64,000 bases of DNA from an uncultured bacterium (GTDB lineage Bacteria > Omnitrophota > Omnitrophia > Omnitrophales > Abzuiibacteriaceae). Below are positions 8,331-50,046 of this stretch, piece after piece. Both the position numbers and the translations under genes were made by a program. Within the stretch, counting starts at the first letter, position 1, and every line of letters starts with the position of its first letter. The stretch spans positions 32,001-96,000 of the forward strand of contig CAYLXA010000007.1 in NCBI GenBank assembly GCA_964387845.1, given 5' to 3'. The notes under the pieces were generated by a model. It was given only the letters and a program-made list of their open reading frames with translations. It had not been told where the DNA came from and did no database searches.

Positions 8331-10345
<2,015 letters not shown>

Positions 10346-11833: not shown

Positions 11834-12343
11834 TCATGCTTTTCCGAGCTTGATGAGCTGTTTCGGCGTCATGAGCCATTCCAGCGCTGCGCAGCTGTCA
11901 TCCATCAGCATTTCAGTATGCAATTTGGCGAGACTCCCCTTTTTGAATTCAACCGAAACAAACTCTTTGCCGGATATCAGCTTTGCAGTCAAGCGGCTCA
12001 TGAACGGCTCGTGGCCGACCAGCAAAATATCTTCCAAATCGGAATGATAATTTTCAAGTTCGCGGATCAATTTGCTTGGTTCGGCCTCCACTTTTAAAAA
12101 ATTGGAAAGCTGAAGCTTCTTTTTGAGATTCAAAATGTCGGCCACGATTTCGGCTGTCTCGCGGGCGCGGACGTACGGGCTTGATAAAATGAGGTCGAAG
12201 GATAATTTGAGCGCTTTCATGCCTTTGGCGGCTTTCTTCATATCCTGAACGCCATCCTCCGTCAAAGGCCTTTCATCATCGCTGGCGTAGCGGTGGAGGT
12301 TTTTATCTTCCGCTTTTCCGTGCCTCAATAAGTAGAGATTCAT
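11834..12343 (-). CDS. histidine phosphatase family protein (SixA-like phosphohistidine phosphatase)
   Basis: The start is probably MNLYLLRHGKAED (RHG catalytic motif). Also SSPYVRARETAEI...LVGHEP. The track ORF 11834..12382 adds a 13-aa upstream extension. Confidence 0.6.
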   Translation of the reverse strand: MNLYLLRHGKAEDKNLHRYASDDERPLTEDGVQDMKKAAKGMKALKLSFDLILSSPYVRARETAEIVADILNLKKKLQLSNFLKVEAEPSKLIRELENYHSDLEDILLVGHEPFMSRLTAKLISGKEFVSVEFKKGSLAKLHTEMLMDDSCAALEWLMTPKQLIKLGKA

Positions 12344-12375
12344 GATAAACTGCATTATACAAAAAGAGGGCCGGA

Positions 12376-13008
12376 ATGACAAAGCGAGACTTTCGCGAAA
12401 TTGAATTCAAGTGGTCTGTAAAATCTGCAAAAGAATTTGCTATTTTCCTTCATCATGCCAAAAAAATGGGTATCCGAATCGGTCCTGCGAAAAAAATTTC
12501 GATCGTGGATACGTATTTGGATACCCGAAACGGAATGTTTGCAAAATCCGGCATCAAAACCAGAATCCGGCGCGCCAATCAAAAATGGGAGCTGACGCAA
12601 AAGCGTATGAGCAAGCTCCGAAGAGGCCTGGCGAGACGTCAGGAAAAAACAATACGTTTGCCAAATTTTGATTCGGTGATTCAAACCATTCAATATGCTT
12701 CCAAAGAATTCCTTCAGGAATTTTTATGCGGAAAGCATGCCTGCGTGCTTTTCACAATCCGCAATCAACGGATTGCGAGAAAGTTGAAAATAACCCGAAA
12801 GACATCGGCCGAACTCTGCTTTGATCAAACCGTGATAAAACGCGGAAAAAAATCCGTTGTTTTGAAAGAAATCGAACTCGAATTTTTAAAAGGAAGGTTT
12901 TCGGAATTTAAGAAATTTATTTCGGCAATCACCCACTCATCAAGCCTCAAGCCCGCCAAAATTTCCAAAGTTGCGACTGCGCTCAAAACTTTCGGGCTTA
13001 AAACATAA
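12376..13008 (+). CDS. CYTH domain protein (triphosphate tunnel metalloenzyme-like)
   Basis: 210 aa. N-terminal REIEFKW resembles the CYTH EIE[RK]KF signature. SD-like AGAGGG upstream. Divergent from the SixA-like gene. Confidence 0.5.
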   Translation: MTKRDFREIEFKWSVKSAKEFAIFLHHAKKMGIRIGPAKKISIVDTYLDTRNGMFAKSGIKTRIRRANQKWELTQKRMSKLRRGLARRQEKTIRLPNFDSVIQTIQYASKEFLQEFLCGKHACVLFTIRNQRIARKLKITRKTSAELCFDQTVIKRGKKSVVLKEIELEFLKGRFSEFKKFISAITHSSSLKPAKISKVATALKTFGLKT

Positions 13009-13010
13009 CC

Positions 13011-13706
13011 TTACTGCGGCGGAGGAGTCTCGGAAGGTTTTTCGGACTCTTCTTCAGATGAGGGCGCGGATATTTTTGGATCGAATTTTTCCCGTGGTTT
13101 TGCAAACTCTTTCTCAATAATCGCTTTATCGCCAAACCTCATCATGCCCGCCACCAGAGGCCCCGGAAAAGATTGTTTTAACTTATTGCAGGTTTTTGCA
13201 ATGAAATTATAATTTCTCACTTTCGCTTCCAATCTCTCTTCGCACGAATCCAAAGTCGTCCTTGCTACAATGTATTCATGTTTTCTCATTAAATAAGGAT
13301 ATTTGTCGGTGGCCTTTACAAGACGTGTAATAACATTGCCAAATTCAGCCTGGGCAGTTTGAAATTTACCTGTCTTGCCCGGATTAATGTAAAGTTCAGC
13401 CGAAGCTTGAAGCTGCTCAACCTGTAAAGCGATTCGATTGGCTTGAACCATCAAACCCTGATCTTCCTTCTCTTTTTCGTGAGATCCGAAAAGCGAAAAG
13501 ATGGTCGCAATAATTCCCAGGCGCTCCCTGCAGGAAGTGCACAATTCCCTCCAGCCGGTAGTCGCACGGGCATCAGCACTCACCATTTTTGCAAGCACAA
13601 TACAGAATAAAATCGCAAAAATGATATTGGCGCCAACGACCAGGACCAAAAACCCTATGAGCAACTGAATGCCCATTTCGCCTATTGAGCCGGACATTTT
13701 CAGCAT
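13011..13706 (-). CDS. LemA family membrane protein
   Basis: 231 aa. N-terminal TM helix. VRNYNFIAKTCNKLKQSFPGPLVAGMMRFGDK matches the LemA conserved YN...FP...A..FG block. Pro/Glu/Ser-rich C-terminal tail. Confidence 0.6.
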   Translation of the reverse strand: MLKMSGSIGEMGIQLLIGFLVLVVGANIIFAILFCIVLAKMVSADARATTGWRELCTSCRERLGIIATIFSLFGSHEKEKEDQGLMVQANRIALQVEQLQASAELYINPGKTGKFQTAQAEFGNVITRLVKATDKYPYLMRKHEYIVARTTLDSCEERLEAKVRNYNFIAKTCNKLKQSFPGPLVAGMMRFGDKAIIEKEFAKPREKFDPKISAPSSEEESEKPSETPPPQ

Positions 13707-13795: not shown

Positions 13796-13984
13796 TTAAT
13801 CCTGCCGGTCAACTGAAAATGCGACCAGCTCTTCATCTTCAAATTGCGCGGAGATTTGGATGGGCTGGCAGCAAACCGTGCAATCCTGAACAAAAGATTG
13901 CTTCCCGCCGCCTGTTATATCCAAAATAACGCTGTTTAATTGACCGCAGTAAGGGCACTCAAACTCGCAATCCTGCTCAATCAT
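13796..13984 (-). CDS. CPXCG-motif cysteine-rich small protein (zinc ribbon)
   Basis: 62 aa. CPYCG ... CTVCC, two Cys pairs. 9 nt downstream of ppk on the same strand. Confidence 0.5.
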   Translation of the reverse strand: MIEQDCEFECPYCGQLNSVILDITGGGKQSFVQDCTVCCQPIQISAQFEDEELVAFSVDRQD

Positions 13985-13993
13985 AGCCGGAGT

Positions 13994-16078
13994 TTACTTG
14001 GGCTTTTGAGGCTTTAATTCGCGTGGCGGAGCTTGCAAGGAAGCTTCCTCGCGGTCAAGGATGCGTTTGCACAAAAATTCCTGGGCGCGGAATTTTTTTC
14101 TTGAATCCGTTTCGACTTTCTGATAATTCCCGTCCGGCAAAAGCTTCCAAGATTTCACGTTGTCCTTAAAATAAATATCCAAAAGCTGAGTTAGTTCTTT
14201 TTTAATTTCCTTGCTTTCGATCGGAAACATGATTTCGACCCGGCGGTCCAGGTTGCGCGGCATCCAATCGGCGCTCGCCAAATAAACCTCATCCTCGCCG
14301 CCATTCTGAAAGTAGAAAATTCTCGCATGCTCGAGAAACATATCTACCAAACTAGTAACTTCAATGTTGTCGCTCAATCCCTGAACGCCCGGTTTTAAGC
14401 AGCAAATGCCGCGCACATTCAACTTGATTTTAACGCCGGCTTTAGACGCGCGGTACAAAGCTTCGATCACTATCGGATCCACAAGCGAGTTCATTTTGGC
14501 CATAATCAGGCCCGGTTTTTCGGTGCTTGAGCGCATGGATTCACGCGTAATCAGCCGGAGAAGTTTGCGCTTGAGCGTAAACGGCGCGACATCGATTTTG
14601 TTCCAACTGGCCGGCTCCGAAAATCCCGTGATCATATTGAAAAACGCAGACAAGTCACCTGCGATACCCTCGTCACATGTAAAGAGACCGACGTCGGAAT
14701 AAAGCCGTGCGGTTTTCTCATTGTAATTACCGGTTGATAAATGCGCGTAGCGCTTAATTCCTTCCGGCTCACGCCTGATGACAAGACATGCTTTGGCGTG
14801 CGTCTTGAGGCCGCGAACACCGTACAACACGTTGGCGCCTGCGATTTCAAGGCGTTTTGCCCATTCAATATTCCTCTCTTCATCAAAGCGGGCTTTGAGC
14901 TCAACGAGTGCTGTCACCTGCTTGCCGTTTTCCGCTGCGCGCTCCAGCGCACGCATGACGGCCGAATCTTTACCTGCTCGATAAAGTGTTTGCTTAATCG
15001 CAAGCACATCCGGATCGGCAGAAGCCGCATTGATAAATTGCAGAAACGCATCAAAAGATTCATAAGGATGCTGAACACAAACATCCTTTTGTTTGATCAA
15101 TTCCCAGATATCGTCGACGTTCGCAAATTCAACTGATGCGCGAGGCCCCCATTCCGGCTGTTTAAACTCATCAAATCCGGGCCGAAAAGCAATTTGTGAA
15201 ATGGTTTTCAAATCAAACCAGCTTTCGACCGGGCAAATCACCTCATCCGAAAATTCAAGCCGGGTCTTCAAAAATTGCGTGAGTACGGCCGAAGCCGCAA
15301 GCTCGGCGCGGACAATATCGCCGTGACGGCGCGCCCGCAATGCCTCACTCATCACCTGCGCAAAGTCATCATCTCTGTCTTCGTCAATATTAAATTCAGC
15401 GCCGCGCGTCAGACGCATCAAACCCTGATCGATGATTTCGTAGCCGGTAAAAAGTTCGCTCGCAAAAAGCGAAACCACATCTTCCAGCAATACAAATGAG
15501 AACCCCGCGCTCTGCGGTAGCGAAATCATGCGCGGAAGATTGCGCGGAATTTCAATGGCGGCAAACTCTTGCTTAACAGCTCCCGGTTTTAAGAGTGAAA
15601 CCACCATATAAAGCGCCAGATTTCCAAGCGTCGGTGTTCTTTCATTTTCGGAAATAGCGATCGGCGTCAGAACCGGAAACAATTCCTTCTCGAAAAAGTG
15701 GCGGATGTAACTTAGTTGAAACTCATTCAGTGCCTGCTTTTTAATGCGGGAAATCCCTGCTTTTTCAAGTTCCGGGATCAATGTCTTAAGAAAATAATCG
15801 TTCTGAACCTGAATCAGCTGATGCGCTTTAGCGCGAACCTGGCGGGCTTCTTCAGACCCGCTTTTGAGGCCCGCAACCCGTACCATGAAAAATTCGTCGA
15901 AATTTGAACTCACAATTCCGATAAATTTTAACCGCTCCAAAAGCGGATTGGCGGCGTCCATTGCTTCCGCTAAAACCCGTTCATTAAACTGAAGCCACGA
16001 AATTTCGCGGTTAAGCAGGCGATCCTGAATATCTTTGTTGATTTCTGAAGTCGGCATCTTGATAATCTCAAATTTCAA
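13994..16078 (-). CDS. ppk: polyphosphate kinase 1
   Basis: 694 aa. NRELSWLQFNERVL-type N-terminus and two PLD-like HKD regions (HAKACLV, HSKLAL-like). Confidence 0.92.
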   Translation of the reverse strand: MKFEIIKMPTSEINKDIQDRLLNREISWLQFNERVLAEAMDAANPLLERLKFIGIVSSNFDEFFMVRVAGLKSGSEEARQVRAKAHQLIQVQNDYFLKTLIPELEKAGISRIKKQALNEFQLSYIRHFFEKELFPVLTPIAISENERTPTLGNLALYMVVSLLKPGAVKQEFAAIEIPRNLPRMISLPQSAGFSFVLLEDVVSLFASELFTGYEIIDQGLMRLTRGAEFNIDEDRDDDFAQVMSEALRARRHGDIVRAELAASAVLTQFLKTRLEFSDEVICPVESWFDLKTISQIAFRPGFDEFKQPEWGPRASVEFANVDDIWELIKQKDVCVQHPYESFDAFLQFINAASADPDVLAIKQTLYRAGKDSAVMRALERAAENGKQVTALVELKARFDEERNIEWAKRLEIAGANVLYGVRGLKTHAKACLVIRREPEGIKRYAHLSTGNYNEKTARLYSDVGLFTCDEGIAGDLSAFFNMITGFSEPASWNKIDVAPFTLKRKLLRLITRESMRSSTEKPGLIMAKMNSLVDPIVIEALYRASKAGVKIKLNVRGICCLKPGVQGLSDNIEVTSLVDMFLEHARIFYFQNGGEDEVYLASADWMPRNLDRRVEIMFPIESKEIKKELTQLLDIYFKDNVKSWKLLPDGNYQKVETDSRKKFRAQEFLCKRILDREEASLQAPPRELKPQKPK

Positions 16079-16135
16079 AATTCAAATATCAAAATCAGAC
16101 TTTTTAAATTTTGATATTTGAAATTTGAATTTTAT
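16071..16135. repeat. AT-rich palindromic element, copy A (arms AAATTTCAAAATTCAAATATCAAAAT / ATTTTGATATTTGAAATTTGAATTTT)
   Basis: Near-perfect ~26-bp inverted repeat with an 11-nt loop. It exactly fills the ppx-stop to ppk-start spacer. Same core as the copies at 22717 and 27205. Confidence 0.7.
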
Positions 16136-17694
16136 GTTTTTGGCGGTTGACCTTGTTTCAATAAAATCGGCCGGCCGAAAATGTCGGAAAACATGCTGCC
16201 TTTTTTGGATAATCCGTCACGCTCGAGCGTCACATCGCCGATTTCTTCAGGAACCCATAAAACAAACGAATCTTTCTTGGACTCAAGTTCAAACGTACGG
16301 ATTTTTTGCTGATGACTCCGGTCTAATGAATCGGCCACCCGTAAAATAGCCGCAAGTTTTGAAACGGTGGCCCGGTCTTGCTTGGTCAGTGACATGTAGG
16401 CCACATGATCCGGCTGAGGAGACGCGCGGCGGTGATAACGCACAATATTTGAGACAAGATCTTTATCGCTTTTTCGAAGCCCGAAAATTTCGGCGGCATC
16501 GACTAAGTAACTGGAATGTTTATGGTGGCTTGTGGCCGCAATAAACATGCCGATATCGTGCAAAATAGCGGAGACCTCAAGTATCAGCCGGTCACGCGTT
16601 CCGAGCCCGTGCTCCTCTTTCAGCAAATCAAATAATTTAACCGACAAACTGGCGACATGCAGCGAATGGGATTCGTCATATTGATATTTTTTTGCCAAAT
16701 GCTTTGCCGAGTTAATGACCTGCTTTGACAAATCAGTTCTTTTATAGCCCGAAAGCAACTGGGAAAGTTCGATCAAAAGGCCGTCCCGGATACTGACCGC
16801 AGGCACCACAATCTTCTCCGCTTTCGTTTCATTCGCAAAATTAGCATAAATCAAGAGAGACGGATAAAGCGTTTCTGCTTCTACATAAGGAATGCCGTAT
16901 TTATCCACAATTTCTTCGGGGGTTAATTTTGAAAGGCTTGTTACAAATTTCTGGAAATCCTTGTTATCAATAATTGAAAAATCTTCCGCAGGTTTTTCAA
17001 TCAGCTGTTTGGCGGCAAAACGAATGTCGCCGCCTAAAGCAATAAACGTATCAATTTCACCCAGATTATATTCACGGCCCGCATAAACCGCGATTCCGTG
17101 AATGCTGCGCTTTAAAACGCGCTGCATCACTTCCGGTTCGGTCTTGCCTGCAATCGCCTGCTCGGGAAGCCGCACGGACCCGATCGAAAGCATCCGGGTC
17201 AATTCGACAACGCCTTTATTTAAAATAATCATTTCCGTACTTCCGGATCCTACTTCAATCACCAGACAATTCTTTTTACCAAAATCAAATTTATCCTGGA
17301 AGACACGCTCAATCGCAATCAGCACAAGCCGGTTTTCCTCCGCGCCTTCCACGACTTCCACATCAATTCCGGTTTGGACAAACACGCGGTCGACGAAATT
17401 ATCGCGGTTAGAAGCTTCTCGGACAGCGCTCGTCGCAATGGCATGAATATTTTTAATGTTGTAGCCGTCAATAACGGTCTTAAAATTCTTGAGAATTTCG
17501 ATACCGTCACGCATCACGCTGTTGCTGATTCTTCCGGAGGTAAACACATCTTTGCCGAAGGCGACGGGTTTTTGAAGATTCTCAAGATAATGAATTTCAG
17601 ACTTTCCTCCCACTTCGGCAACCGCCATGCGGATTCCGCTCGTTCCGATATCAATCACCGCAACCGGTTGTTTGACCGCTGTCTCCGCAGACAT
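16132..17694 (-). CDS. ppx: Ppx/GppA family exopolyphosphatase / guanosine pentaphosphate phosphohydrolase with C-terminal HD domain
   Basis: The start is probably MSAETAVKQPVAVIDIGTSGIRM (ASKHA fold N-terminus). The HD motif ILHDIG is present. The track ORF extends 41 aa further upstream into the ROK gene. The corrected start overlaps the ROK stop by 4 nt. Confidence 0.85.
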   Translation of the reverse strand: MSAETAVKQPVAVIDIGTSGIRMAVAEVGGKSEIHYLENLQKPVAFGKDVFTSGRISNSVMRDGIEILKNFKTVIDGYNIKNIHAIATSAVREASNRDNFVDRVFVQTGIDVEVVEGAEENRLVLIAIERVFQDKFDFGKKNCLVIEVGSGSTEMIILNKGVVELTRMLSIGSVRLPEQAIAGKTEPEVMQRVLKRSIHGIAVYAGREYNLGEIDTFIALGGDIRFAAKQLIEKPAEDFSIIDNKDFQKFVTSLSKLTPEEIVDKYGIPYVEAETLYPSLLIYANFANETKAEKIVVPAVSIRDGLLIELSQLLSGYKRTDLSKQVINSAKHLAKKYQYDESHSLHVASLSVKLFDLLKEEHGLGTRDRLILEVSAILHDIGMFIAATSHHKHSSYLVDAAEIFGLRKSDKDLVSNIVRYHRRASPQPDHVAYMSLTKQDRATVSKLAAILRVADSLDRSHQQKIRTFELESKKDSFVLWVPEEIGDVTLERDGLSKKGSMFSDIFGRPILLKQGQPPKT

Positions 17695-17695
17695 T

Positions 17696-18703
17696 TTAAT
17701 CCCTCTTCTTTTCCTGGTAGTGATCCCACGCCAGTTTGGCAGCGCCCAAAATAATCGCGTCATCTTTGAGCTGTGCCGGCACAACCGCAACGTATTTGGC
17801 GATCGACTGCATGGCATGCTGCCGCATTGATTCGCGCGCTTCGTTCACTACAATACGTGACATCGCTTCTACCAACCCTCCGCCCAAGACAATCATCTCG
17901 GGATTGAGGATATTGACCACATTCGCCATCGCAATACCGAGGATGCGCGACTTTCGGATCATCAGGTCTTTGATTTTTTGATCCCCGGCATCAATCGCAC
18001 GTTTCAATGCGCCGCTTTTAATGTCTTTGATGTCCGTCCCGGACATTTTGTATAGTTTCGGAGCCTGTTGCTTCGCTGCCAAGAGCGCTGCTTCTGAAGC
18101 AATCGCCAAGCGGCCCGCCAATGCCTCCAGACAACCGCGCTTGCCGCATCCGCACATCGGGCCCAGTGGATCCACCAAAATATGCCCGATTTCGCCTGCA
18201 GCGCCAGTAAATCCGCGATACAACGCGCCATTTAATATGAGAGCGCCGCCGATGCCGGTTCCCGGAAAAATACCGACCACATGCTTATGGCCTTTGGCGG
18301 CGCCGAAAACAAGTTCTCCATAGAGGCCTGCATTGACGTCATTTTCGAGGACAACCGGTACTTTAAAGATTTTGGATATTTTTTTTGCAAGCGGATATTG
18401 CTTCAGAAAACGAACATTTGGCGATTCAATCACAACACCGCGATCATCAATAATGCCCGGGCAGCCGATGCCGATGGCTTTCAGATTCTTAAGATCGACG
18501 TCCGATTCATCGGTAACTTGATAAATACTTTCTGCGATATCATCAATAAAATTTTTCCCGCCTTTAGACACTTCGGTTTTCATTTTTGTGGAAGCCAAAA
18601 CGCGGAAATGATCATTCATTAAAGCGGTCAGCATCTTGGTGCCGCCCAAATCAATGCCGACAATATATTTTTTCTTTTTCTTATTTTTTTTCTTTTTTGC
18701 CAT
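17696..18703 (-). CDS. ROK family sugar kinase (glucokinase-like) with poly-lysine N-terminus
   Basis: 335 aa. MAKKKKNKKKKKYIVGIDLGGTKM. Zinc motif CGCGKRGCLE typical of ROK kinases. Confidence 0.8.
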   Translation of the reverse strand: MAKKKKNKKKKKYIVGIDLGGTKMLTALMNDHFRVLASTKMKTEVSKGGKNFIDDIAESIYQVTDESDVDLKNLKAIGIGCPGIIDDRGVVIESPNVRFLKQYPLAKKISKIFKVPVVLENDVNAGLYGELVFGAAKGHKHVVGIFPGTGIGGALILNGALYRGFTGAAGEIGHILVDPLGPMCGCGKRGCLEALAGRLAIASEAALLAAKQQAPKLYKMSGTDIKDIKSGALKRAIDAGDQKIKDLMIRKSRILGIAMANVVNILNPEMIVLGGGLVEAMSRIVVNEARESMRQHAMQSIAKYVAVVPAQLKDDAIILGAAKLAWDHYQEKKRD

Positions 18704-18705
18704 CG

Positions 18706-19650
18706 CTAATTCCTTGACACTGCAAGCTCGGGAAAGTTAAGTTTTTGCCAGCCGGTCCCCTGATGACCAAAGCTGAAAAGCTCCGGGTGAAAAATCTCTG
18801 CCAAAATTTCAAATGATTCCAAAAGCCTCGGGCCGGGCCGGTTAAAATATTGATTACCGTCCGCCAAAAACACCTTTCTTTCGCGCACCGCTTTTAACTG
18901 GTTCCAACCGGGCTGCGCAAAAAGCGGTTCTAATTCGGTTTTGGTCCGGGCCATATCAAATCCGCACGGCACAATCATGATCACATCCGGATCTGCTTCT
19001 TTTAACTTTTCCCACTCAAGCCAGGGAGAATGTTTTCCGGCTTCGCCAAATAAATTATCAGCACCGGCTGCTTCCACGAGTTCCGGAACCCAATTACCGG
19101 ACGTCATTAAAGGATCGATCCATTCCAAAAGCACGGTACGCGGACGGTTATTTGCTTGGTGCGCTTTTTTGGCAATGGCTGCCATTTGATTTTCCATATC
19201 CCGGACAAGTTTTTCGCCATTTTGTTTCACACCAAGCTCGCCGGCAATTTTCAAAATATCCGAGAAAACATCTGAAAGTGAATTGGGTTTGAACGAAATG
19301 ATTCTTGCCTTAGATCCCATCATTTCACAAACTGCTTGTTCTACATCCTTCAAACTTACCGCACAAACCTCGCACTGATCCTGAGTCAGGATAAAATCGG
19401 GCGCCAGAGATTTAAGTTTTGCAGAATCGATCTCATAGATAGAGATCGCATTGTGCGCGAGCGATTTGACCGCCCGGTCGATCTCGGAGCTTTTGGCATA
19501 AATATCAATCTTGGGCTTGCTGAGCTGCGGAAGTTCTTTAACGGATCCGGGGAAATCACACTCATGCGAGCGGCCGATTAATTGATCTCGGAGCCCAAGT
19601 GCGCAAATAATTTCTGTTGCGCTCGACAGCAGAGATACAATTTTCGGCAT
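18706..19650 (-). CDS. periplasmic-binding-protein type (class III, BtuF/FhuD-like) protein lacking a signal peptide
   Basis: 314 aa. It starts directly with the first beta-strand motif KIVSLLSSATEIICALG. No hydrophobic leader. Confidence 0.6.
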   Translation of the reverse strand: MPKIVSLLSSATEIICALGLRDQLIGRSHECDFPGSVKELPQLSKPKIDIYAKSSEIDRAVKSLAHNAISIYEIDSAKLKSLAPDFILTQDQCEVCAVSLKDVEQAVCEMMGSKARIISFKPNSLSDVFSDILKIAGELGVKQNGEKLVRDMENQMAAIAKKAHQANNRPRTVLLEWIDPLMTSGNWVPELVEAAGADNLFGEAGKHSPWLEWEKLKEADPDVIMIVPCGFDMARTKTELEPLFAQPGWNQLKAVRERKVFLADGNQYFNRPGPRLLESFEILAEIFHPELFSFGHQGTGWQKLNFPELAVSRN

Positions 19651-19679
19651 AAAACACCTTCTGTCGCATTGAACACCCT

Positions 19680-20210
19680 TTAATTGATCGCGACAATGCG
19701 AGAATCGCGCAACGCAGGATTGATACGCTCAAACGACCAACTCAACCCAAAAAGAACAACGGTAAACAGCATATCGCCGGCTAAAGTATTTCTGAAAAAC
19801 GGGAGCGCCATGGCGAAACATTCCACAAGCCCAGCCATAGTCTTAGGATACAACGTGTCAATGAGCCATACGCCGAAATTAGTAATCATAAAAAACATGA
19901 CGGAACTTGCAAGCGCCGCAATCAAAATATTGCCGGCGCTTTTCTTTTGCCGAAGCCAAAACCCGATGCCAATCACCAAAGCCAGGCAGCCATAAGTCGC
20001 GATTACTTGACTATGAAAACCAATTACCAGATCGCTTAACAAGAGCGCGCCGAAAGTGACCAGAAAAGCAGCACGTTTATCGGAAAACTGTGCACCGCCA
20101 AAAAGCGCCATCGCCACAACGGGCGTTAAGTTCGGTGGATGAGGAATCAGCCGTGAAGCAGCTGCGGATAAGGTTAACGCAAGCAGCATCCAAAATCTGG
20201 GTTTTAACAT
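19680..20210 (-). CDS. small integral membrane protein (ECF S-component-like / putative substrate-capture protein)
   Basis: 176 aa, ~5-6 predicted TM helices (MLLALTLSAA..., LVIGFHSQV..., FFMITNFGVWLI...). Confidence 0.4.
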   Translation of the reverse strand: MLKPRFWMLLALTLSAAASRLIPHPPNLTPVVAMALFGGAQFSDKRAAFLVTFGALLLSDLVIGFHSQVIATYGCLALVIGIGFWLRQKKSAGNILIAALASSVMFFMITNFGVWLIDTLYPKTMAGLVECFAMALPFFRNTLAGDMLFTVVLFGLSWSFERINPALRDSRIVAIN

Positions 20211-22716: not shown

Positions 22717-22790
22717 AATTTTAATATCAAAATCTAAATTTCAAATATCAAAACATCTTTTGAATTTTGATATTTGATATTTGAATTTAT
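22717..22790. repeat. AT-rich palindromic element, copy B (ATATCAAAATCTAAATTTCAAATATCAAAA ... TTTTGATATTTGATATTTGAATTT)
   Basis: Inverted repeat filling the spacer between the TPR-protein stop and the redoxin start. Shares the core AAATTTCAAATATCAAAA with copies A and C. Confidence 0.7.
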
Positions 22791-27204: not shown

Positions 27205-27335
27205 AAACCCAATTTCAAATATCAAAATCTAAAACAAATTCTAAATTTAAATGTTTCAATAGCCGTTTTGAAATTCAATATTTAGTAATTTGAAATTGTT
27301 TGGATATTTGAAATTTGACATTTGAATTTAAATAT
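27205..27335. repeat. AT-rich palindromic element, copy C (extended; AATTTCAAATATCAAAATCTAAAAC ... GGATATTTGAAATTTGACATTTGAATTT)
   Basis: Lies in the divergent spacer between the membrane protein and the Rieske gene. Same core as copies A and B, with additional internal TTTGAAATT repeats. Confidence 0.65.
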
Positions 27336-34652: not shown

Positions 34653-37022
34653 TTATTTCTCAGGGATTATTGAAACATTGTCATACGCCGTATTGGCACG
34701 ATAACTCTTAAAACCAACACGCCCTGATTGAAATGTGTCATCCTTGACTTTAATTTTATGCCTATCGTTGAGGTAAACCTGAATTTTTCTTTCGTTGACC
34801 GCCACTCTCAATTGATACTTCCTTCCGATTTCAATCAAATTTTCACGTTCCGCCAAATCGACCACTACCCCTTGATGTTTCTTTTGCAATCGAATTTTAT
34901 TCTTAGAAGCATCCAAAAGGACTGCATAATAATTATCCGGATCTTGATATCGGAAAAGCAGGCCCGCAACATTGCTTCCAACCATAGCTTCATTGCCCAG
35001 CTGCACATCAGCTTGAAAAACGTAATTATCCCAATCTTGACGCTCCGACAACGCAATCGCATCCAAGAAATCAATATTCTTAGCCTTGTAATTAATTTTA
35101 AATTGCCTTTCCACCGGCAAGCCAAAACTATACAAGTTTGCATGATGGGCAGAATCGGCAGATCCTTGCCAATATGCGTTTCTTAAATCCCAATGATACG
35201 AATCTTTTCTGACGGCATGCACTTCCATCCGATCCTGATAAATTTCGACGTAATGGTATTCTCCCATATTATTAAAACCAGTCGTATGAACATAGTAAAT
35301 GCTATCCAGCTTGCTTAAACCGCTGATATGAGAATGCCCCGCAAATTCCGCGACAACACGCCTGCTAGCCTCCAAAATATCTTTAACATCGTTCGAATTC
35401 CCGCCTCCCCACCAATAACCATAAGCGTCCCCATCATCACGGACAGCAGCATGCCCGTAATGACAAAACAAAAACGCTTTCTTGGTTGGATGCGCTGCTA
35501 ATTCATTTTTTAACCATACTAAATAATTTGAAAAGTCGGAACCGTTTTGCTTTCCCTTAAACATAGTAGCACCGTCTTCGGCAAGAAATAAAAAATCGCC
35601 GAACGTCCAACTATAGGAAAGCTTGTTAGGGCCAAATACTTCTGACCAAAAATGGCCCCTCGGGAATCCCAGCCGAAGATCTTCTCCCCAATCGTGATTG
35701 CCTAAAACCGGATAATAAGGAACCGAGAGTTGATCCAAAACATTCTTGACGGATTCTAATTCCGACAAAGTACCGTTGTCCGTCAAATCACCGGTAATTA
35801 CCACAAAACTTGGCAGCGGAAAATCCCGGCTTTGATTAATATCAGCAACAAAACTCTGAAGATCCTTCAAACTATTGTTATCAGTATCACGAATATGGGT
35901 ATCTGATATCACCGCGAATGAAAAAAGAGGTTTTCCCCGAACTTCGATAGGGATAACCGACCGGTGACTTTCTTCATCCAGCACAACCGTATAAGTTCCC
36001 GCTTCGTTCGCATTCATAGAAAAAGCATCCGGAAATAAAAGTTTACAATCTGATGATAACGAACAATCTGTCAAAGAAATCGGCCCATGCACTTTACCCG
36101 AAGGACTAATTGCAGACACTTGGGCTTCGCTTAAATTTGCCGTCGATGAAAAATGAAGTGTCGAATGTCCGCCGACATACAAATGCGACGGCCTTGCTTT
36201 GATTGTTGTGATTGAAAGTACGGTAACTTCATCAAACACAGAAACCCCGCCCTGAGAACCAATCCCTATCGAGCCGCTTGGGTAAGATTGATCATAAACA
36301 CGTATATCAGGATCTTGATCTTCGGGCTTGTCGAACCACACTTTAATTTCAGGGCCCACCGCTGAAATCGCGACGGTCGACAATTTGCCGTGTTCCGGTT
36401 TTGGAACTGAAATACTCGCAAGTCTCCGGTCGAATAAACCATTGGTTCGCGCATATAAATCAAGCGCTCCATCATTGCTCAGCACTAAAGCGTAAGAGTT
36501 GTCATTTTTTTTGCCGGTCATCGTTAAACGAAAATAAACAATGGAAGAATTGAATGGATTTTGGTCAATTTTGCTTCCTAATTTTACGCGGATTAGATAA
36601 TCAGATTGGCTAAACTTGCCTTTTTTGTCGGGAAGCATTAAAGCAAGATTGTGTTTTTTATCATCAAAAAAACATTGTCCGTCTTTCAGATTGAAAGCAC
36701 CGCGTTTCTTGGTCCATTGTTTTTTCGTATTCTTCGGATTGCTGAAATCATCATGGAATAATTTTTGTTCATTTTCATTTTGAACATCCCCATGCCCGGC
36801 CCGTATTCCAAAGCTTTCTCCAACTTCCCGTTGCTGATACTGCCCATTAACCGCTACCCAAGCTCCGGAAACAGGGCTCCATGCGGTTGAATGGTTGGAA
36901 AAATCATCTGAAAATGTTGCATTGACATTCGCAGTTTGTAAACAAAAAATACTTATTAACGCCAGTATCGTACGCACATTGCGCTCCGCCAAACTTTTAA
37001 TTTTTTGTTTTACTTTCTTCAT
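34653..37022 (-). CDS. secreted DUF1080(jelly-roll) - metallophosphoesterase - DUF1080 protein, paralog A
   Basis: 789 aa. Signal peptide. Calcineurin-like motifs VISDTHIRD, VVITGDLTD, GNHDW, GHSH. N- and C-terminal DUF1080/LamG-like domains (NYYAVLLD, GRVGFKSYRANTAYDNVSI). Confidence 0.7.
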   Translation of the reverse strand: MKKVKQKIKSLAERNVRTILALISIFCLQTANVNATFSDDFSNHSTAWSPVSGAWVAVNGQYQQREVGESFGIRAGHGDVQNENEQKLFHDDFSNPKNTKKQWTKKRGAFNLKDGQCFFDDKKHNLALMLPDKKGKFSQSDYLIRVKLGSKIDQNPFNSSIVYFRLTMTGKKNDNSYALVLSNDGALDLYARTNGLFDRRLASISVPKPEHGKLSTVAISAVGPEIKVWFDKPEDQDPDIRVYDQSYPSGSIGIGSQGGVSVFDEVTVLSITTIKARPSHLYVGGHSTLHFSSTANLSEAQVSAISPSGKVHGPISLTDCSLSSDCKLLFPDAFSMNANEAGTYTVVLDEESHRSVIPIEVRGKPLFSFAVISDTHIRDTDNNSLKDLQSFVADINQSRDFPLPSFVVITGDLTDNGTLSELESVKNVLDQLSVPYYPVLGNHDWGEDLRLGFPRGHFWSEVFGPNKLSYSWTFGDFLFLAEDGATMFKGKQNGSDFSNYLVWLKNELAAHPTKKAFLFCHYGHAAVRDDGDAYGYWWGGGNSNDVKDILEASRRVVAEFAGHSHISGLSKLDSIYYVHTTGFNNMGEYHYVEIYQDRMEVHAVRKDSYHWDLRNAYWQGSADSAHHANLYSFGLPVERQFKINYKAKNIDFLDAIALSERQDWDNYVFQADVQLGNEAMVGSNVAGLLFRYQDPDNYYAVLLDASKNKIRLQKKHQGVVVDLAERENLIEIGRKYQLRVAVNERKIQVYLNDRHKIKVKDDTFQSGRVGFKSYRANTAYDNVSIIPEK

Positions 37023-37191: not shown

Positions 37192-39567
37192 TCACTTTTT
37201 AACTACTACATTGTCATAAAAGGTATGCGCCCGATAACTTTTAAATCCAATTTTTCCTGACGAAAAAGCTGAGTCGGTAGCTTTAATTTTTAATACATCA
37301 TTGAGATAAACCTGGATTTCATTTCCTTTTGTCACAATCCGCAATTGATAAACCTTATCCTGCTGAACCAATGTTCGTTCACTGCCTAAATCAGCCACTA
37401 CCCCCTTTTGCTTCTTCTGCAGCTTAATTTCACGCCTTGATTTGTCTAATAAAACCGCATAATAATTGTTGGGGTCGTGATAATGAAAAACAAGTCCTGC
37501 CACATTATCCCCGACCAACAACTCCTTGCCCAACTTAATATCAGCTTGAAACATATAATCACGCCAATTGCTATTTCTGGACACCGAAATCGCATCCAGA
37601 AAATCGATGGTTTTTGCGCCGTAATCAATCTTAAATTGTCTTTCAATCGGCAAGCCAAAGCTGTAAAGTTTGGTATTGTGGGTAGAGTCTGCGGATCCTT
37701 GCCAATATGCTTCTGCTAAATCCCAGCGATATGAGCTTTTCTGCACTGCATGCACTTCCATATGATTTTTGTAAATTTCAACATAGCGATATTCTCCCAT
37801 ATTATTAAAACCGGTTGTATGAACATAATAAATATTATCTGATTTTTTTAAGCCGCTGACATGAGAATGCCCTGCAAATTCAGCCACAACACGCCCGCTG
37901 GCCTCCAGAATATCCTTAACATCGTTCGAATTCCCGCCGCCCCACCAATAACTAAAAGCGTCTCCATCGTCCCTGATCCTGGTATGTCCATAATGACAAA
38001 ATAAAATAACCCGTTTGTTCTTATTTGATGCCAACTGATGCCGCAGCCATTTTGTATAATTTAAAAAATCAGGATCATTCTTTTTACTACCATACGTTAC
38101 ACTTGAATCTTCAGTCAAAAAAAGAAAATCTCCATAACTCCAACCATAGAAACGTTTATCCGCACCAAAAACATCTGACCAGTGTTTGCCTTTTGGTGTT
38201 TTTCTTCGAAGGTCTTCGACCCAATCATGGTTTCCAAGAATGGGATAATACGGAATTAAAAGCTGATCAAAAGCATCTTTAACAATTCGCATTTCATCCG
38301 TCGTTCCACTATCAGTCAAATCTCCTGTAATTACGACAAAAGCTGGAAGCGGGAAATGCCGGCTCTTATTTGTATCGGAAACAAAATCGCGGAGGTCCTG
38401 CAGGTCTTGATCGTGATGATCACGGTAATGAGTATCGCTGAGTACCATAAAAGAAAACAAAGGCTTTTCCCTGACTTCAAGCAATAAAATGGTAGAATTT
38501 TGTCTGTCATTGACCGTGACCTTATAAGTTCCTAGTTCATTCAGATTCATGGAAAACGCATCCGGAAACGTTGCAGAACAACTTGATTGCCCCAAGCAGT
38601 CAGATGGATAAATCGGACCATAGATTTTCCCGGAAGGACTAACGATGGAAACCTGGATAGATTCAAAATCCAGGCTTGAGCTAAAACGAAGAGTTGTTTT
38701 ACCGTCTTGATAGAAATGCGGCGGCCATGCTTCAGCTTTCAATACCGGCAGGACTTCGATGTCATCAAATTCAAACATGCCCCCATAAGCTCCTAAACCG
38801 ATTGTGCCGGATGGAAACGAGCGATCATGCACAATTATATCCGGAATTTGATCTTCGGTTTTATCAAGCCAAATTTTAATTTCAGACCCGACAACCAAAG
38901 CAATAACATTATAAGCCTCTTTGTTCTCGGGAATGGCAACGCTAGCCAGCCGGTCACCAAATTTTCCATCAATTTTTTTATATAAATCAAGAATTCCTCT
39001 TCTCCGGAAAAGCAGAGCATAGGAATTGTCATCTTCCTTATTCGCCATCGTAAGCCGGAAATAAAGAATGGCGGCCCCAAAATCACCAGGGGCTTTCTTG
39101 CACGCAATGCTAGCTTGAATTCGATAGTCAGACCACTGCATAAATTTTTTGTCAGAAGGAATGCTTAAGGCAATGTCGGAACCTTTCGTTATATACCGAT
39201 CATTTTCAATGATAAAAACTCCCCGTTTATTAGCCCACAATTGATTGCTAGTAGTATTACTATTAAAATTATCAAAAAATAATGTTTGCGAATCTTTTGG
39301 TTCAAATCCTGCGCTTGGATTATCCGGGACTATTTCATAACTGTCGCCCACGGTTCTCTGCTGATATTCTCCATTGATCTGGACCCAGGCGCCGGACACA
39401 GCCTGCCAATGAGCAGGATTTACGGCTGAGAAATCGTCTGAAAAGACAACTGATGTTTGTTCAATATTTTGAGAGCAACCGGCCGCTAGAGCAAGAATAA
39501 TCCATACGGCTTGGGTTAATAAATGGTGGGTCACTTTTCCAGAAATTCCCTGAGAGAGTAATTTCAT
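37192..39567 (-). CDS. DUF1080 - metallophosphoesterase - DUF1080 lipoprotein, paralog B
   Basis: 791 aa. Lipobox LAAGC. Same motif set as paralog A (VLSDTHYRD, GNHDW, GHSH). Roughly 50% aa identity to paralog A along the whole length. Confidence 0.7.
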   Translation of the reverse strand: MKLLSQGISGKVTHHLLTQAVWIILALAAGCSQNIEQTSVVFSDDFSAVNPAHWQAVSGAWVQINGEYQQRTVGDSYEIVPDNPSAGFEPKDSQTLFFDNFNSNTTSNQLWANKRGVFIIENDRYITKGSDIALSIPSDKKFMQWSDYRIQASIACKKAPGDFGAAILYFRLTMANKEDDNSYALLFRRRGILDLYKKIDGKFGDRLASVAIPENKEAYNVIALVVGSEIKIWLDKTEDQIPDIIVHDRSFPSGTIGLGAYGGMFEFDDIEVLPVLKAEAWPPHFYQDGKTTLRFSSSLDFESIQVSIVSPSGKIYGPIYPSDCLGQSSCSATFPDAFSMNLNELGTYKVTVNDRQNSTILLLEVREKPLFSFMVLSDTHYRDHHDQDLQDLRDFVSDTNKSRHFPLPAFVVITGDLTDSGTTDEMRIVKDAFDQLLIPYYPILGNHDWVEDLRRKTPKGKHWSDVFGADKRFYGWSYGDFLFLTEDSSVTYGSKKNDPDFLNYTKWLRHQLASNKNKRVILFCHYGHTRIRDDGDAFSYWWGGGNSNDVKDILEASGRVVAEFAGHSHVSGLKKSDNIYYVHTTGFNNMGEYRYVEIYKNHMEVHAVQKSSYRWDLAEAYWQGSADSTHNTKLYSFGLPIERQFKIDYGAKTIDFLDAISVSRNSNWRDYMFQADIKLGKELLVGDNVAGLVFHYHDPNNYYAVLLDKSRREIKLQKKQKGVVADLGSERTLVQQDKVYQLRIVTKGNEIQVYLNDVLKIKATDSAFSSGKIGFKSYRAHTFYDNVVVKK

Positions 39568-48801: not shown

Positions 48802-50046
48802 TTATAAAACACGGAGGACAGAATTTACGCCGCCGTAACGATTTTCTTCAAGCTCAGAATGAGTGGGATCCGTCTTCCATTCCCCGTCCACCAAAAATTT
48901 ATACCGGTAGGTGCCGGACGGCATCGAAATCACTTTCTGCCATGAATCCGGCATTCCTTCCGCCTTTGCCATGGCCTCGGGAACCCAGTGATTAAAATCG
49001 CCGGCAATTAATACTTCGCGCGCTTCTTTACTTTCATAGGAAAATAAAATACCGCCCAAAACGGGGCAAGGCGAGCCGGCATTTTGCGTTAATGTTTCAG
49101 TCTCGGATGCCTGTGTTTGCAACGCGGCCTGGCCTTCCGGAGCGCTCGATTCCCCTGCAGCCGGCTCAAGAACAGGCTCCGGCTCAGCCTTCGATAACTC
49201 TGAAAATGTTTCCCGAACCGCTTCGCCGTTGGCAGGTGCGCCCGGCTTTTCTCCGTTCACTTCCTCCGGCGCAATGGCAATGCGGATTCCGCGCTCAATG
49301 ACTTCAATCGCCAAATTCATATAATCCTGAAAACCGGTTGCTTTGCGGTCATAATCCACGATACTTTTTCCGGCAGCAGCCGCTTCTCTGAGCTTAATAT
49401 TTTCGCGGATATGATTCGTGAAGGTTTTTTCCTTGAAATGATGTTTCACCTCACCGAGAACTTCCTGAGCCAGCTTGATTCTCGATTCATAGCGTGTCAC
49501 CAGTGCATGAACTTCGACACTTTTTCCCGTAATTTGGCGGAGTGATTCAATCGTTTCGAATATCTTTGCCAGGCCATGCAATGAAAAAAATGAAGGTTCG
49601 ATCGGAATAATGACTTCGCCGGATGCGCGGAGGGCATTAAAAGTTAAAATGCCCAAATTCGGCGGGCAATCGATAATGACAAACTCGTAATTGGAAGTAA
49701 TCTGATTGAGTTGATTGAGCAGCTTATTTTCTCTGCCCGGCACACCGGCCAGCTCCTGCTCGATAACGCTCAAAACCACATGGGAAGGAACTAGATGAAG
49801 GAAAGTGCTCACGTTTACCAGCGCTTCGGAAATACCGGACGCTTGGTCGGATGATTTCAACAAATCATACGCCGTTCTGCTCAAGGATTCGGCCTTCACG
49901 CCAAGCCCGCAGGTAGCATGGCCTTGCGGATCCAAATCGATCAGCAGAACGCGCTTCTGTACAAATGCCAATGCAGCCGCCAAATTAATCGCGGTGGTGG
50001 TCTTACCGCAGCCACCCTTCTGATTGGCGATGGCGATTACTCTCAT
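48802..50046 (-). CDS. ParA/Soj-type P-loop ATPase fused to a C-terminal AMPK-beta/CBM48-like glycogen-binding domain
   Basis: 414 aa. Deviant Walker A IANQKGGCGKTTTAINLA and a ParA core of ~260 aa. A Pro/Glu/Ala-rich linker follows. Then GGILFSYESKEAREVLIAGDFNHWVP...SGTYRYKFLVDGEWKTDPTHSELEENRYGGVNSVL matches the AMPK1_CBM consensus. Confidence 0.8.
   Translation of the reverse strand: MRVIAIANQKGGCGKTTTAINLAAALAFVQKRVLLIDLDPQGHATCGLGVKAESLSRTAYDLLKSSDQASGISEALVNVSTFLHLVPSHVVLSVIEQELAGVPGRENKLLNQLNQITSNYEFVIIDCPPNLGILTFNALRASGEVIIPIEPSFFSLHGLAKIFETIESLRQITGKSVEVHALVTRYESRIKLAQEVLGEVKHHFKEKTFTNHIRENIKLREAAAAGKSIVDYDRKATGFQDYMNLAIEVIERGIRIAIAPEEVNGEKPGAPANGEAVRETFSELSKAEPEPVLEPAAGESSAPEGQAALQTQASETETLTQNAGSPCPVLGGILFSYESKEAREVLIAGDFNHWVPEAMAKAEGMPDSWQKVISMPSGTYRYKFLVDGEWKTDPTHSELEENRYGGVNSVLRVL

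Follow-up and report, generated by a model that had tools for sequence, protein, structure and literature searches.

A ROK sugar kinase gene conserved with ppx and ppk1, and a neighbouring DUF6580/binding-protein pair of probably separate origin, in an uncultured Omnitrophota bacterium

Introduction

Polyphosphate (polyP) metabolism is usually described in terms of two genes, ppk and ppx. The stretch of DNA considered here, in the following called the window, comprises 64,000 nucleotides (nt) of contig CAYLXA010000007.1 from an uncultured bacterium of the Omnitrophota (assembly GCA_964387845.1). The contig derives from metagenomic data (Logan SRR15237813) and is in NCBI, too. Between positions 13796 and 20210 it carries a run of six genes, which encode a DUF6580 membrane protein, a signal-less binding protein of the periplasmic type (PBP), a sugar kinase of the ROK family, a Ppx/GppA phosphatase, the polyP kinase Ppk1 and a small cysteine-rich CPXCG protein. 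An earlier note on this DNA had taken them for one operon, in which a possibly polyP-dependent glucokinase works together with polyP synthesis and degradation and the PBP is a sensor or chaperone in the cytoplasm. The six minus-strand open reading frames (ORFs) of that note are indeed present and each has a domain match (Table 1). Comparison with other genomes indicates, however, that the run rather probably is made up of two neighbouring modules without relation to each other, in an Omnitrophota genome that is compact and strand-biased: ROK, ppx and ppk1 (module A), which are found together in several phyla, and DUF6580 and PBP (module B), which adjoin polyP genes in a single genus-level lineage.

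The locus and its gene spacing

Table 1. Features of the polyP locus and its surroundings (positions in the window)
Feature	Position	Strand	Properties
DUF6580 membrane protein	19680-20210	-	176 amino acids; PF20221, E 4e-55; first gene of module B
Signal-less Peripla_BP_2 protein (PBP)	18706-19650	-	314 amino acids; PF01497, 85 bits; second gene of module B
ROK sugar kinase	17696-18703	-	335 amino acids; Pfam ROK (PF00480), 231 bits; first gene of module A; N-terminus MAKKKKNKKKKKY
Polybasic N-terminal tail of ROK, MAKKKKNKKKKKY	18665-18703	-	encoded by an A-rich tract
Ppx/GppA phosphatase with HD-type domain III	16132-17694	-	520 amino acids; PF02541, PF21447, PF01966
Ppk1	13994-16057	-	687 amino acids from ATG, 694 from TTG at 16078; four PPK1 Pfam domains
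CPXCG Cys-rich small protein	13796-13984	-	62 amino acids; PF14255, 61 bits, E 8e-17
LemA-family membrane protein	13011-13706	-	PF04011
CYTH (triphosphate tunnel) protein	12376-13008	+	210 amino acids; PF01928
SixA-type phosphohistidine phosphatase	11834-12355	-	TIGR00249; start uncertain, between 12343 and 12382
AT-rich palindromic repeat	16070-16133		in the ppx-ppk1 spacer

Read from the sequence, the junctions between the six genes are gaps throughout: 29 nt between DUF6580 and PBP, 2 nt between PBP and ROK (TAG cg ATG), 1 nt between ROK and ppx (TAA a ATG), 74 nt between ppx and the ATG of ppk1 (53 nt to the upstream TTG), and 9 nt between ppk1 and CPXCG. The earlier note had described overlapping start and stop codons at three of these junctions (ROK/ppx by 4 nt, PBP/ROK by 3 and ppk/CPXCG by 9), which are gaps of 1, 2 and 9 nt instead; its spacing of 0-30 nt is correct for four of the junctions but not for ppx/ppk1. 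A longer Ppx ORF starting at 17817, which would overlap ROK, was rejected because the homologues and an independent gene call in locus L001 (a duplicate of the window; loci are designated by L numbers) begin at MSAETAV.

It should be noted that such packing is the rule in the window. The minus strand carries 53 of the 56 genes, 24 of 49 same-strand junctions are not longer than 30 nt, and the median same-strand gap is 33 nt. Tight spacing and a shared direction are thus the background, and neither alone shows more than chance, so that functional linkage and mere packing can be told apart only by comparison across genomes. This should be thought of in genome scans in general: in compact, strand-biased genomes close co-directional packing alone does not make a functional unit, and operon calls based on spacing are unreliable. 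Separate promoters or terminators between the genes, which the earlier note had named as an argument against its operon, were not found on the minus strand within these intergenic gaps, but promoter-like and terminator-like matches are no commoner here than in shuffled sequence and the scan was judged uninformative for the locus. An Rfam scan of the window gave two tRNAs and no riboswitch. As stated in the earlier note, the locus has no ABC ATPase or permease, and a PstB query did not find a similar ATPase anywhere in the window. No pst genes were detected in the 64 kb either.

Conservation of ROK-ppx-ppk1

For the comparison 80 ppk1 neighbourhoods from GTDB genomes were queried with the proteins of the window, the nearest Ppk1 in these genomes being from Candidatus Omnitrophota with at most 62% identity. 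The flanking sequence was sufficient in 14 Omnitrophota-type loci and in 50 of 64 more distant ones. All 14 Omnitrophota-type loci have ROK, ppx and ppk in the same order and on the same strand. The 50 distant loci comprise 23 with the complete triad, 22 with ppx-ppk without ROK, and 5 with ppk alone; the 23 triads are from Spirochaetota except for one from Lentisphaerae (L027) and one from Fibrobacteres (L081). Taken together, 59 of the 64 related loci with enough flank have ppx as the gene just before ppk1. The same picture emerges when sampling starts from the kinase: four ROK homologues (52-65% identity), chosen only because they lie on long contigs, are all in a ROK-ppx-ppk arrangement with junctions that overlap or are shorter than 15 nt, as for example on a contig from Elusimicrobia, where the overlaps are 14 and 4 nt. 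The synteny for which the earlier note had suggested looking exists, and the linkage of a sugar kinase to polyP synthesis and degradation is supported in several phyla.

The surroundings of the triad also recur. In L006, L011, L170 and the P0219 contig the triad directly follows a porin-pstSCAB-phoU cluster, and in several loci an opposite-strand CYTH-CHAD gene followed by a SixA-type histidine phosphatase gene is found downstream. A His_Phos_1 gene is a neighbour of the triad in L006, L007, L009, L011, L018, L168, L170 and the P0219 contig. The window keeps the downstream part, with CYTH on the plus and SixA on the minus strand. The polyP locus thus reaches past 13796-20210 and is part of a phosphate/polyP supercluster, of which the ancestral order would have been pst-phoU, ROK-ppx-ppk1, CYTH-CHAD on the reverse strand, and SixA. 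By all appearances module A is old, resembles an operon and serves phosphate and polyP metabolism. No description of ROK-ppx-ppk synteny was found in the literature and, as far as this search goes, the operon is conserved yet undescribed.

The phosphatase and the polyP kinase of the triad differ in how closely they fit known families. Ppk1 scores 797 bits with TIGR03705 (cut-off 466) and has the complete four-domain architecture (PP_kinase_N, middle, C1 and C2). Ppx is a Ppx-GppA protein at the level of the Pfam family (118 bits, cut-off 27) and stays below the cut-offs of the equivalog models for exopolyphosphatase (TIGR03706 and NF008108) and GppA, with 166 versus 307 bits, 128 versus 864 (Ppx) and 103 versus 624 (GppA). 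The arrangement resembles the E. coli-type ppk-ppx operon in that PPK1 and a Ppx/GppA phosphatase are encoded adjacently and co-directionally and are linked to the Pho/Pst system. It differs in that ppx precedes ppk, that ROK is the fixed first gene, that CYTH(-CHAD) and SixA are recurrent followers, and that Ppx, with its domain III of the HD type, does not reach the equivalog cut-offs.

The ROK kinase and its phosphoryl donor

The ROK protein is a regular member of its family: it scores 231 bits with PF00480 (cut-off 22.9) and has the catalytic motifs and the zinc site in place. Invariant in its clade are G16, D18, G20, T22 and K23 (DxGxTK), N121-D122, E171, G173-H174 (ExGH) and E193, which means that conservation extends to the glycine motifs for nucleotide binding, the Asn-Asp of catalysis, ExGH and the extra sugar-binding Glu. 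These residues suggest a catalytically intact hexose kinase, the substrate being most likely glucose. The best-scoring NCBIfam model is TIGR00744 (ROK_glcA_fam) with 201.5 bits, which is below the cut-off of 260.35, so that from this model the sugar specificity can be suggested but not assigned.

The closest relatives of solved structure are ATP-dependent glucokinases, namely those of Enterococcus faecalis (2QM1, 164 bits) and Streptomyces griseus (3VGK, GlkA, 155 bits). With these group B ROK ATP-glucokinases, to which the GlcK type from B. subtilis also belongs, the window ROK shares the catalytic Asp, ExGH, the zinc motif and the nucleotide-binding glycine motifs. It differs from them by its score below the TIGR00744 cut-off, its polybasic tail and its obligate ppx-ppk1 context, and also in that many of its orthologues are without the zinc motif. 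The polyP glucokinases (PPGKs) known from actinobacteria, cyanobacteria and methanotrophs, such as the Arthrobacter enzyme 1WOQ and the polyP glucokinase from Methylomonas, likewise belong to the ROK superfamily and are polyP-tied sugar kinases. However, the similarity to them is weak. With 35 bits the polyP/ATP glucomannokinase 1woq is the 33rd of the relatives in the PDB, the NCBIfam model for polyphosphate--glucose phosphotransferase (NF045942) reaches 49.8 of the 250 bits required and matches only the N-terminal half, and the window ROK is about 70 residues longer. On these scores it is not a member of the known actinobacterial-type PPGK family, and the polyP-dependent glucokinase that the earlier note had considered does not withstand this sequence test for the known family, though it may still hold as a mechanism.

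Characterised polyP glucokinases lack the cysteine motif CXCGXXGCXE (PMC6406325). The window ROK retains it as CGCGKRGCLE (residues 184-193). Among the 14 Omnitrophota-type triads the CxCGxxGC zinc motif is lost from 12 ROKs (L007, L009, L010, L012, L013 and L015-L021), of which those of L013 and L021 additionally are without the His of ExGH; it is kept in the window lineage, in L006, L011 and L168-L170 and in most spirochaete copies. The use of the motif to discriminate between ATP and polyP as donor was dropped, as orthologues in the same operon context differ. With 12 of 14 orthologues lacking it, the motif cannot argue either way on the use of polyP in this clade.

It is conceivable, at perhaps one chance in a few, that the ROK is a polyP-dependent or polyP/ATP glucokinase of a new lineage, which uses polyP directly as donor and binds it via its lysine tail. 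The ROK gene is built into the ppx-ppk1 unit across about five phyla, the polybasic tail described below is found throughout the clade, and the loss of the zinc motif from most Omnitrophota-type orthologues is reminiscent of the characterised polyP glucokinases. The low scores with NF045942 and 1woq, as compared with the 164 bits for the ATP glucokinase, the intact CGCGKRGCLE of the window ROK itself and the fact that the tail is mostly absent from spirochaete triads speak against direct use. In the favoured explanation the kinase would draw on polyP by one of two routes. The more likely one is that PPK1, running in reverse, makes ATP anew from ADP on the spot, and the less likely one that polyP itself serves as phosphoryl donor for the ROK.

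The polybasic tail

The lysine-rich N-terminus of the ROK had been pointed out in the earlier note and proves to be a feature of the clade rather than an oddity of one gene. In 102 of the 120 closest homologues at least three Lys or Arg residues and almost no Asp or Glu precede the GIDLGGT motif; several homologues have 9-12 Lys/Arg, and in the window lineage the tail has been expanded to 9-10 lysines. Among 55 ORFs of the window that were scanned for N-terminal Lys/Arg it is the only such run. There is a precedent in AlgP, where Lys-rich low-complexity tails are located on polyP granules (PMC9239181). We infer that the tail docks the ROK on the polyanion polyP, and stored polyP would then pay for the phosphorylation of sugar. 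The codons of the tail are almost all AAA or AAG, including a run of eight A, and the number of lysines varies among close relatives (9-10). Such a tract could be a site of slippage or ribosome sliding.

This composition lends some colour to the view that the ROK is a housekeeping glucokinase which hitch-hikes beside ppx-ppk1 and that its tail is a functionless by-product of A-tract slippage. The variable lysine count, the coding by A runs, the closest likeness being to ATP glucokinases and the 22 of 50 distant loci that have ppx-ppk without ROK can all be cited for it. We nevertheless consider this improbable. The order with its overlapping junctions is kept across Omnitrophota, Elusimicrobia, Spirochaetota, Lentisphaerae and Fibrobacteres, which is far beyond neutral adjacency, and that 102 of 120 homologues of 52-66% identity have a basic tail nearly free of acidic residues argues that it is under selection.

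DUF6580 and the signal-less binding protein

Module B behaves differently in the comparison. DUF6580 and PBP have polyP genes as neighbours only in the window, of which L001 is a duplicate, and in L086, L087 and L088, with PBP identities of 78-86%, and the order PEPCK-DUF6580-PBP-ROK-ppx is maintained in these three close relatives. Neither gene was found in 40 other triad loci (37 from the GTDB scan plus L168-L170), and vice versa none of ROK, ppx and ppk was found in 79 other PBP loci from metagenomes. The neighbours of PBP across 82 loci include none that dominates, the most frequent being SDR (11), MIP (6) and arsenate-reductase-like proteins (4).

The PBP was called signal-less in the earlier note, rightly so: the reading frame is closed by a stop upstream of position 19650, where its first start codon lies, and the predicted structure has its strand 1 and helix 1 already at residues 4-17, which leaves no room for a signal peptide. 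The family comprises more than 8000 clusters, has 55-60% identity across phyla and consists of proteins of 304-314 amino acids without exception, from which it follows that the family as a whole is without a signal peptide. Its invariant residues are C16, H29-E30-C31-D32, C93xxC96, H207, C229, H288 and the sequence DGNQxFNRPGPR, five cysteines and three histidines among them; this pattern and the degree of conservation are more in keeping with an enzyme or a carrier of a metallocofactor than with a simple solute receptor. The AF2 model (pLDDT 91) has its top Foldseek matches to the heme-binding proteins RhuT, PhuT, ShuT and BhuT and to BtuF (E 1e-13 to 6e-19 for RhuT, PhuT, ShuT and BtuF), and some homologues bear the NCBI name cobalamin-binding protein. 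The protein thus resembles the class III binding proteins of type II ABC importers (BtuF, HmuT and ShuT) in having the PBP fold and the Peripla_BP_2 domain and in that the closest structures bind heme or B12. Unlike a binding protein of an ABC importer, it is not exported and has no cognate permease and ATPase at the locus, it is unusually conserved, and its score with the BtuF equivalog model is 30.7 bits versus a cut-off of 234.

DUF6580 has no match among PDB chain sequences at E up to 10, and tblastn against plasmids gave none. Its predicted fold matches those of BtuM and of the S-components of ECF transporters, and it can thus be considered a putative S-component. BtuM from Thiobacillus denitrificans, a solitary S-component that transports B12, functions without an ECF module and has an invariant cobalt-ligating Cys80 (PMC6072759); in DUF6580 proteins H24 is invariant and C131 nearly so, as possible counterparts of His28 and Cys80 of BtuM. 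That a solitary S-component needs neither ABC ATPase nor permease would explain why these importer parts are missing beside DUF6580 and PBP.

Three contexts of DUF6580 homologues were available (L171, L172 and L173-176), the latter two of which are independent. In both of these a PP-loop ATPase (Diphthami_syn_2), DUF6580 and a signal-less PBP follow one another in this order, with a TonB-dependent receptor adjoining. Both also have a cobalamin riboswitch (RF00174, gathering score 31.5), in L172 at 1962-2163 on the plus strand (141 bits) and in L173 at 9115-9314 on the minus strand (128 bits), and that of L172 lies upstream of the co-directional run receptor-ATPase-DUF6580-PBP. The same PP-loop ATPase is also a neighbour of PBP in L002-4 and L104. 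Of a BtuM-type context, a cobalamin riboswitch next to a TonB receptor is seen in these DUF6580 loci but not in the window. The riboswitch and receptor suggest a B12-linked role for DUF6580 and possibly also for the bacterial Diphthami_syn_2. A literature search on DUF6580 and on signal-less BtuF-like proteins gave nothing specific. By analogy with BtuM, module B would most likely serve to take up a corrinoid or a similar tetrapyrrole without an ABC transporter and to hand it over in the cytoplasm, in that the BtuM-like solitary S-component passes its ligand to the BtuF/heme-type PBP in the cytoplasm.

These findings bear on the proposal of the earlier note that the six genes form one operon, with a polyP-dependent glucokinase, the PBP as its cytoplasmic sensor or chaperone and the membrane protein supplying the substrate. 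The very tight gaps from DUF6580 to ppx (29, 2 and 1 nt), the order preserved in three close relatives and the lack of a convincing internal promoter or terminator are in its favour. Yet the association is confined to one shallow lineage, the two sets of genes are separate in the 40 other triad loci and in all 79 other PBP loci, tight co-directional spacing is the norm in the window, and the DUF6580-PBP pair has a context of its own elsewhere, with TonB receptor, PP-loop ATPase and cobalamin riboswitch. One functional unit of all six genes is therefore very unlikely, and a role of the PBP as sensor or chaperone of a polyP glucokinase is not supported.

There is only the slightest chance that DUF6580 and PBP are a phosphate-related uptake device in place of pstSCAB-phoU: the pair fills exactly the slot of porin-pstSCAB-phoU in L006, L011, L170 and the P0219 contig, and pst genes were not detected in the window, but the fold of the PBP is that of class III (heme, B12, siderophore) rather than of the PstS type, the pair is elsewhere tied to cobalamin riboswitches and TonB receptors and not to Pho genes, and the pst genes may sit elsewhere in the genome.

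Local insertions and neighbouring genes

The remaining genes of the locus help to see how it was assembled. The CYTH protein is 44% identical to its counterpart in L006, the gene of which is placed and oriented alike. It is without a CHAD domain and is thus not a CYTH-CHAD protein of polyP granules, while its positional orthologue in L170 consists of CYTH plus CHAD, and the polyP-binding CHAD is present in the L006 orthologue, too. The space where the CHAD-coding part would be is occupied by the LemA and CPXCG genes. LemA is common to the window and L088 only, where it is 56% identical. In L088, the only close relative that covers the CPXCG position, there is no room for CPXCG (the gap between ppk and LemA is about 130 nt), and the gene was not found at any other ppk locus.

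The palindrome in the ppx-ppk1 spacer has 26-nt arms with 92% complementarity (arm TTCAAATTTCAAATATCAAAAT) and an RNA fold of -22.4 kcal/mol (z -4.9). The window contains three intergenic copies (16070-16133, 22733-22785 and 27207-27319), the third with a longer centre of about 70 nt, and six matches to the arm, as compared with 0.01 expected by chance. In L088 the ppx/ppk junction is only about 10 nt long and without the palindrome, which makes the element look like a small mobile or REP-like insertion. CPXCG, LemA and the palindrome are thus further local insertions.

SixA scores 100.4 bits with TIGR00249 (cut-off 74.5). The best sigma-70-like match of the region is at 12354-12382 on the minus strand (TTGTCA, 17-nt spacer, TATAAT; 11 of 12 positions), just upstream of or overlapping the start of SixA in the head-to-head spacer between CYTH and SixA. 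This suggests that SixA has a promoter of its own.

Elsewhere in the window, an ORF at 48802-50046 on the minus strand encodes a ParA/MinD-type ATPase (AAA_31, CbiA) with a C-terminal glycogen-binding AMPK1_CBM domain, which might be a positioning ATPase for glycogen granules. At 34653-37022 and 37192-39567, also on the minus strand, there are tandem paralogues of about 790 amino acids with calcineurin-like phosphoesterase and 3-keto-disaccharide hydrolase-like domains.

Interpretation

The explanation that we favour is that of two unrelated modules. In this lineage the DUF6580-PBP pair would have come to lie between PEPCK and ROK by insertion, where relatives have pst-phoU. Separate origin does not mean separate transcription. 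In the four members of the lineage the gap between PBP and ROK is about 25, 22, 10 and 2 nt, and the promoter-bearing spacer that lies upstream of ROK in L170 has no counterpart in this lineage. Transcription therefore probably runs into the triad from the genes upstream. Its co-transcription with the upstream genes is likely, without implying a shared function, and from the spacing that of the whole six-gene run is plausible.

Several observations weigh against this picture or parts of it. With a gap of 2 nt between PBP and ROK, the two modules may well share a transcript. The functional roles given to module A come from comparison of sequences. The ROK is most like the ATP-dependent ROK glucokinases and fails the PPGK model, and direct use of polyP by it would be new. 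The tail is short in most homologues (3-5 Lys/Arg) and mostly absent in spirochaete triads; since many triads have a short tail or none, it is not required for the synteny. With respect to module B, the 79 closest homologues of the PBP are solitary, with variable neighbours, and a sensitive hidden Markov model search found no DUF6580 beside them; the PBPs that accompany DUF6580 in other loci share no more than 37-38% identity with that of the window, and the DUF6580 locus L171 has no PBP at all. The five invariant cysteines of the PBP could have a metal or redox role rather than one in simple ligand binding. Finally, neither a cobalamin riboswitch nor a TonB receptor or BtuB is present in the window, and among its 20 other large ORFs neither B12-dependent enzymes nor ECF or ABC components were seen.

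Going one step further, we tentatively propose, as something that may well turn out otherwise, that the ROKs of the ROK-ppx-ppk1 clade (Omnitrophota, Elusimicrobia, Spirochaetota, Lentisphaerae and Fibrobacteres) represent an unrecognised class of polyP-coupled hexokinases. They would be distinct from the actinobacterial PPGKs, would be docked on polyP via the tail, and would use polyP either directly or through ATP made by PPK1 to prime glycolysis in anaerobes; DUF6580 and the Cys-rich PBP would possibly be an undescribed ABC-independent corrinoid system.

Implications

Module B points to a possible uptake route for B12 or another tetrapyrrole that does without an ABC transporter. It would be the first functional lead both for DUF6580 and for a very large and highly conserved family of signal-less "periplasmic" binding proteins. 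If the proposal for module A is true, polyP-linked kinases would extend beyond the actinobacterial PPGK family, and the lysine tail would offer a docking mechanism that is readily testable. A sugar kinase that is hard-wired to ppk and ppx in about five phyla of mostly uncultured anaerobes would link the polyP reserve directly to the first step of glycolysis, from which sugar-fermenting anaerobes could restart glycolysis at the expense of stored polyP.

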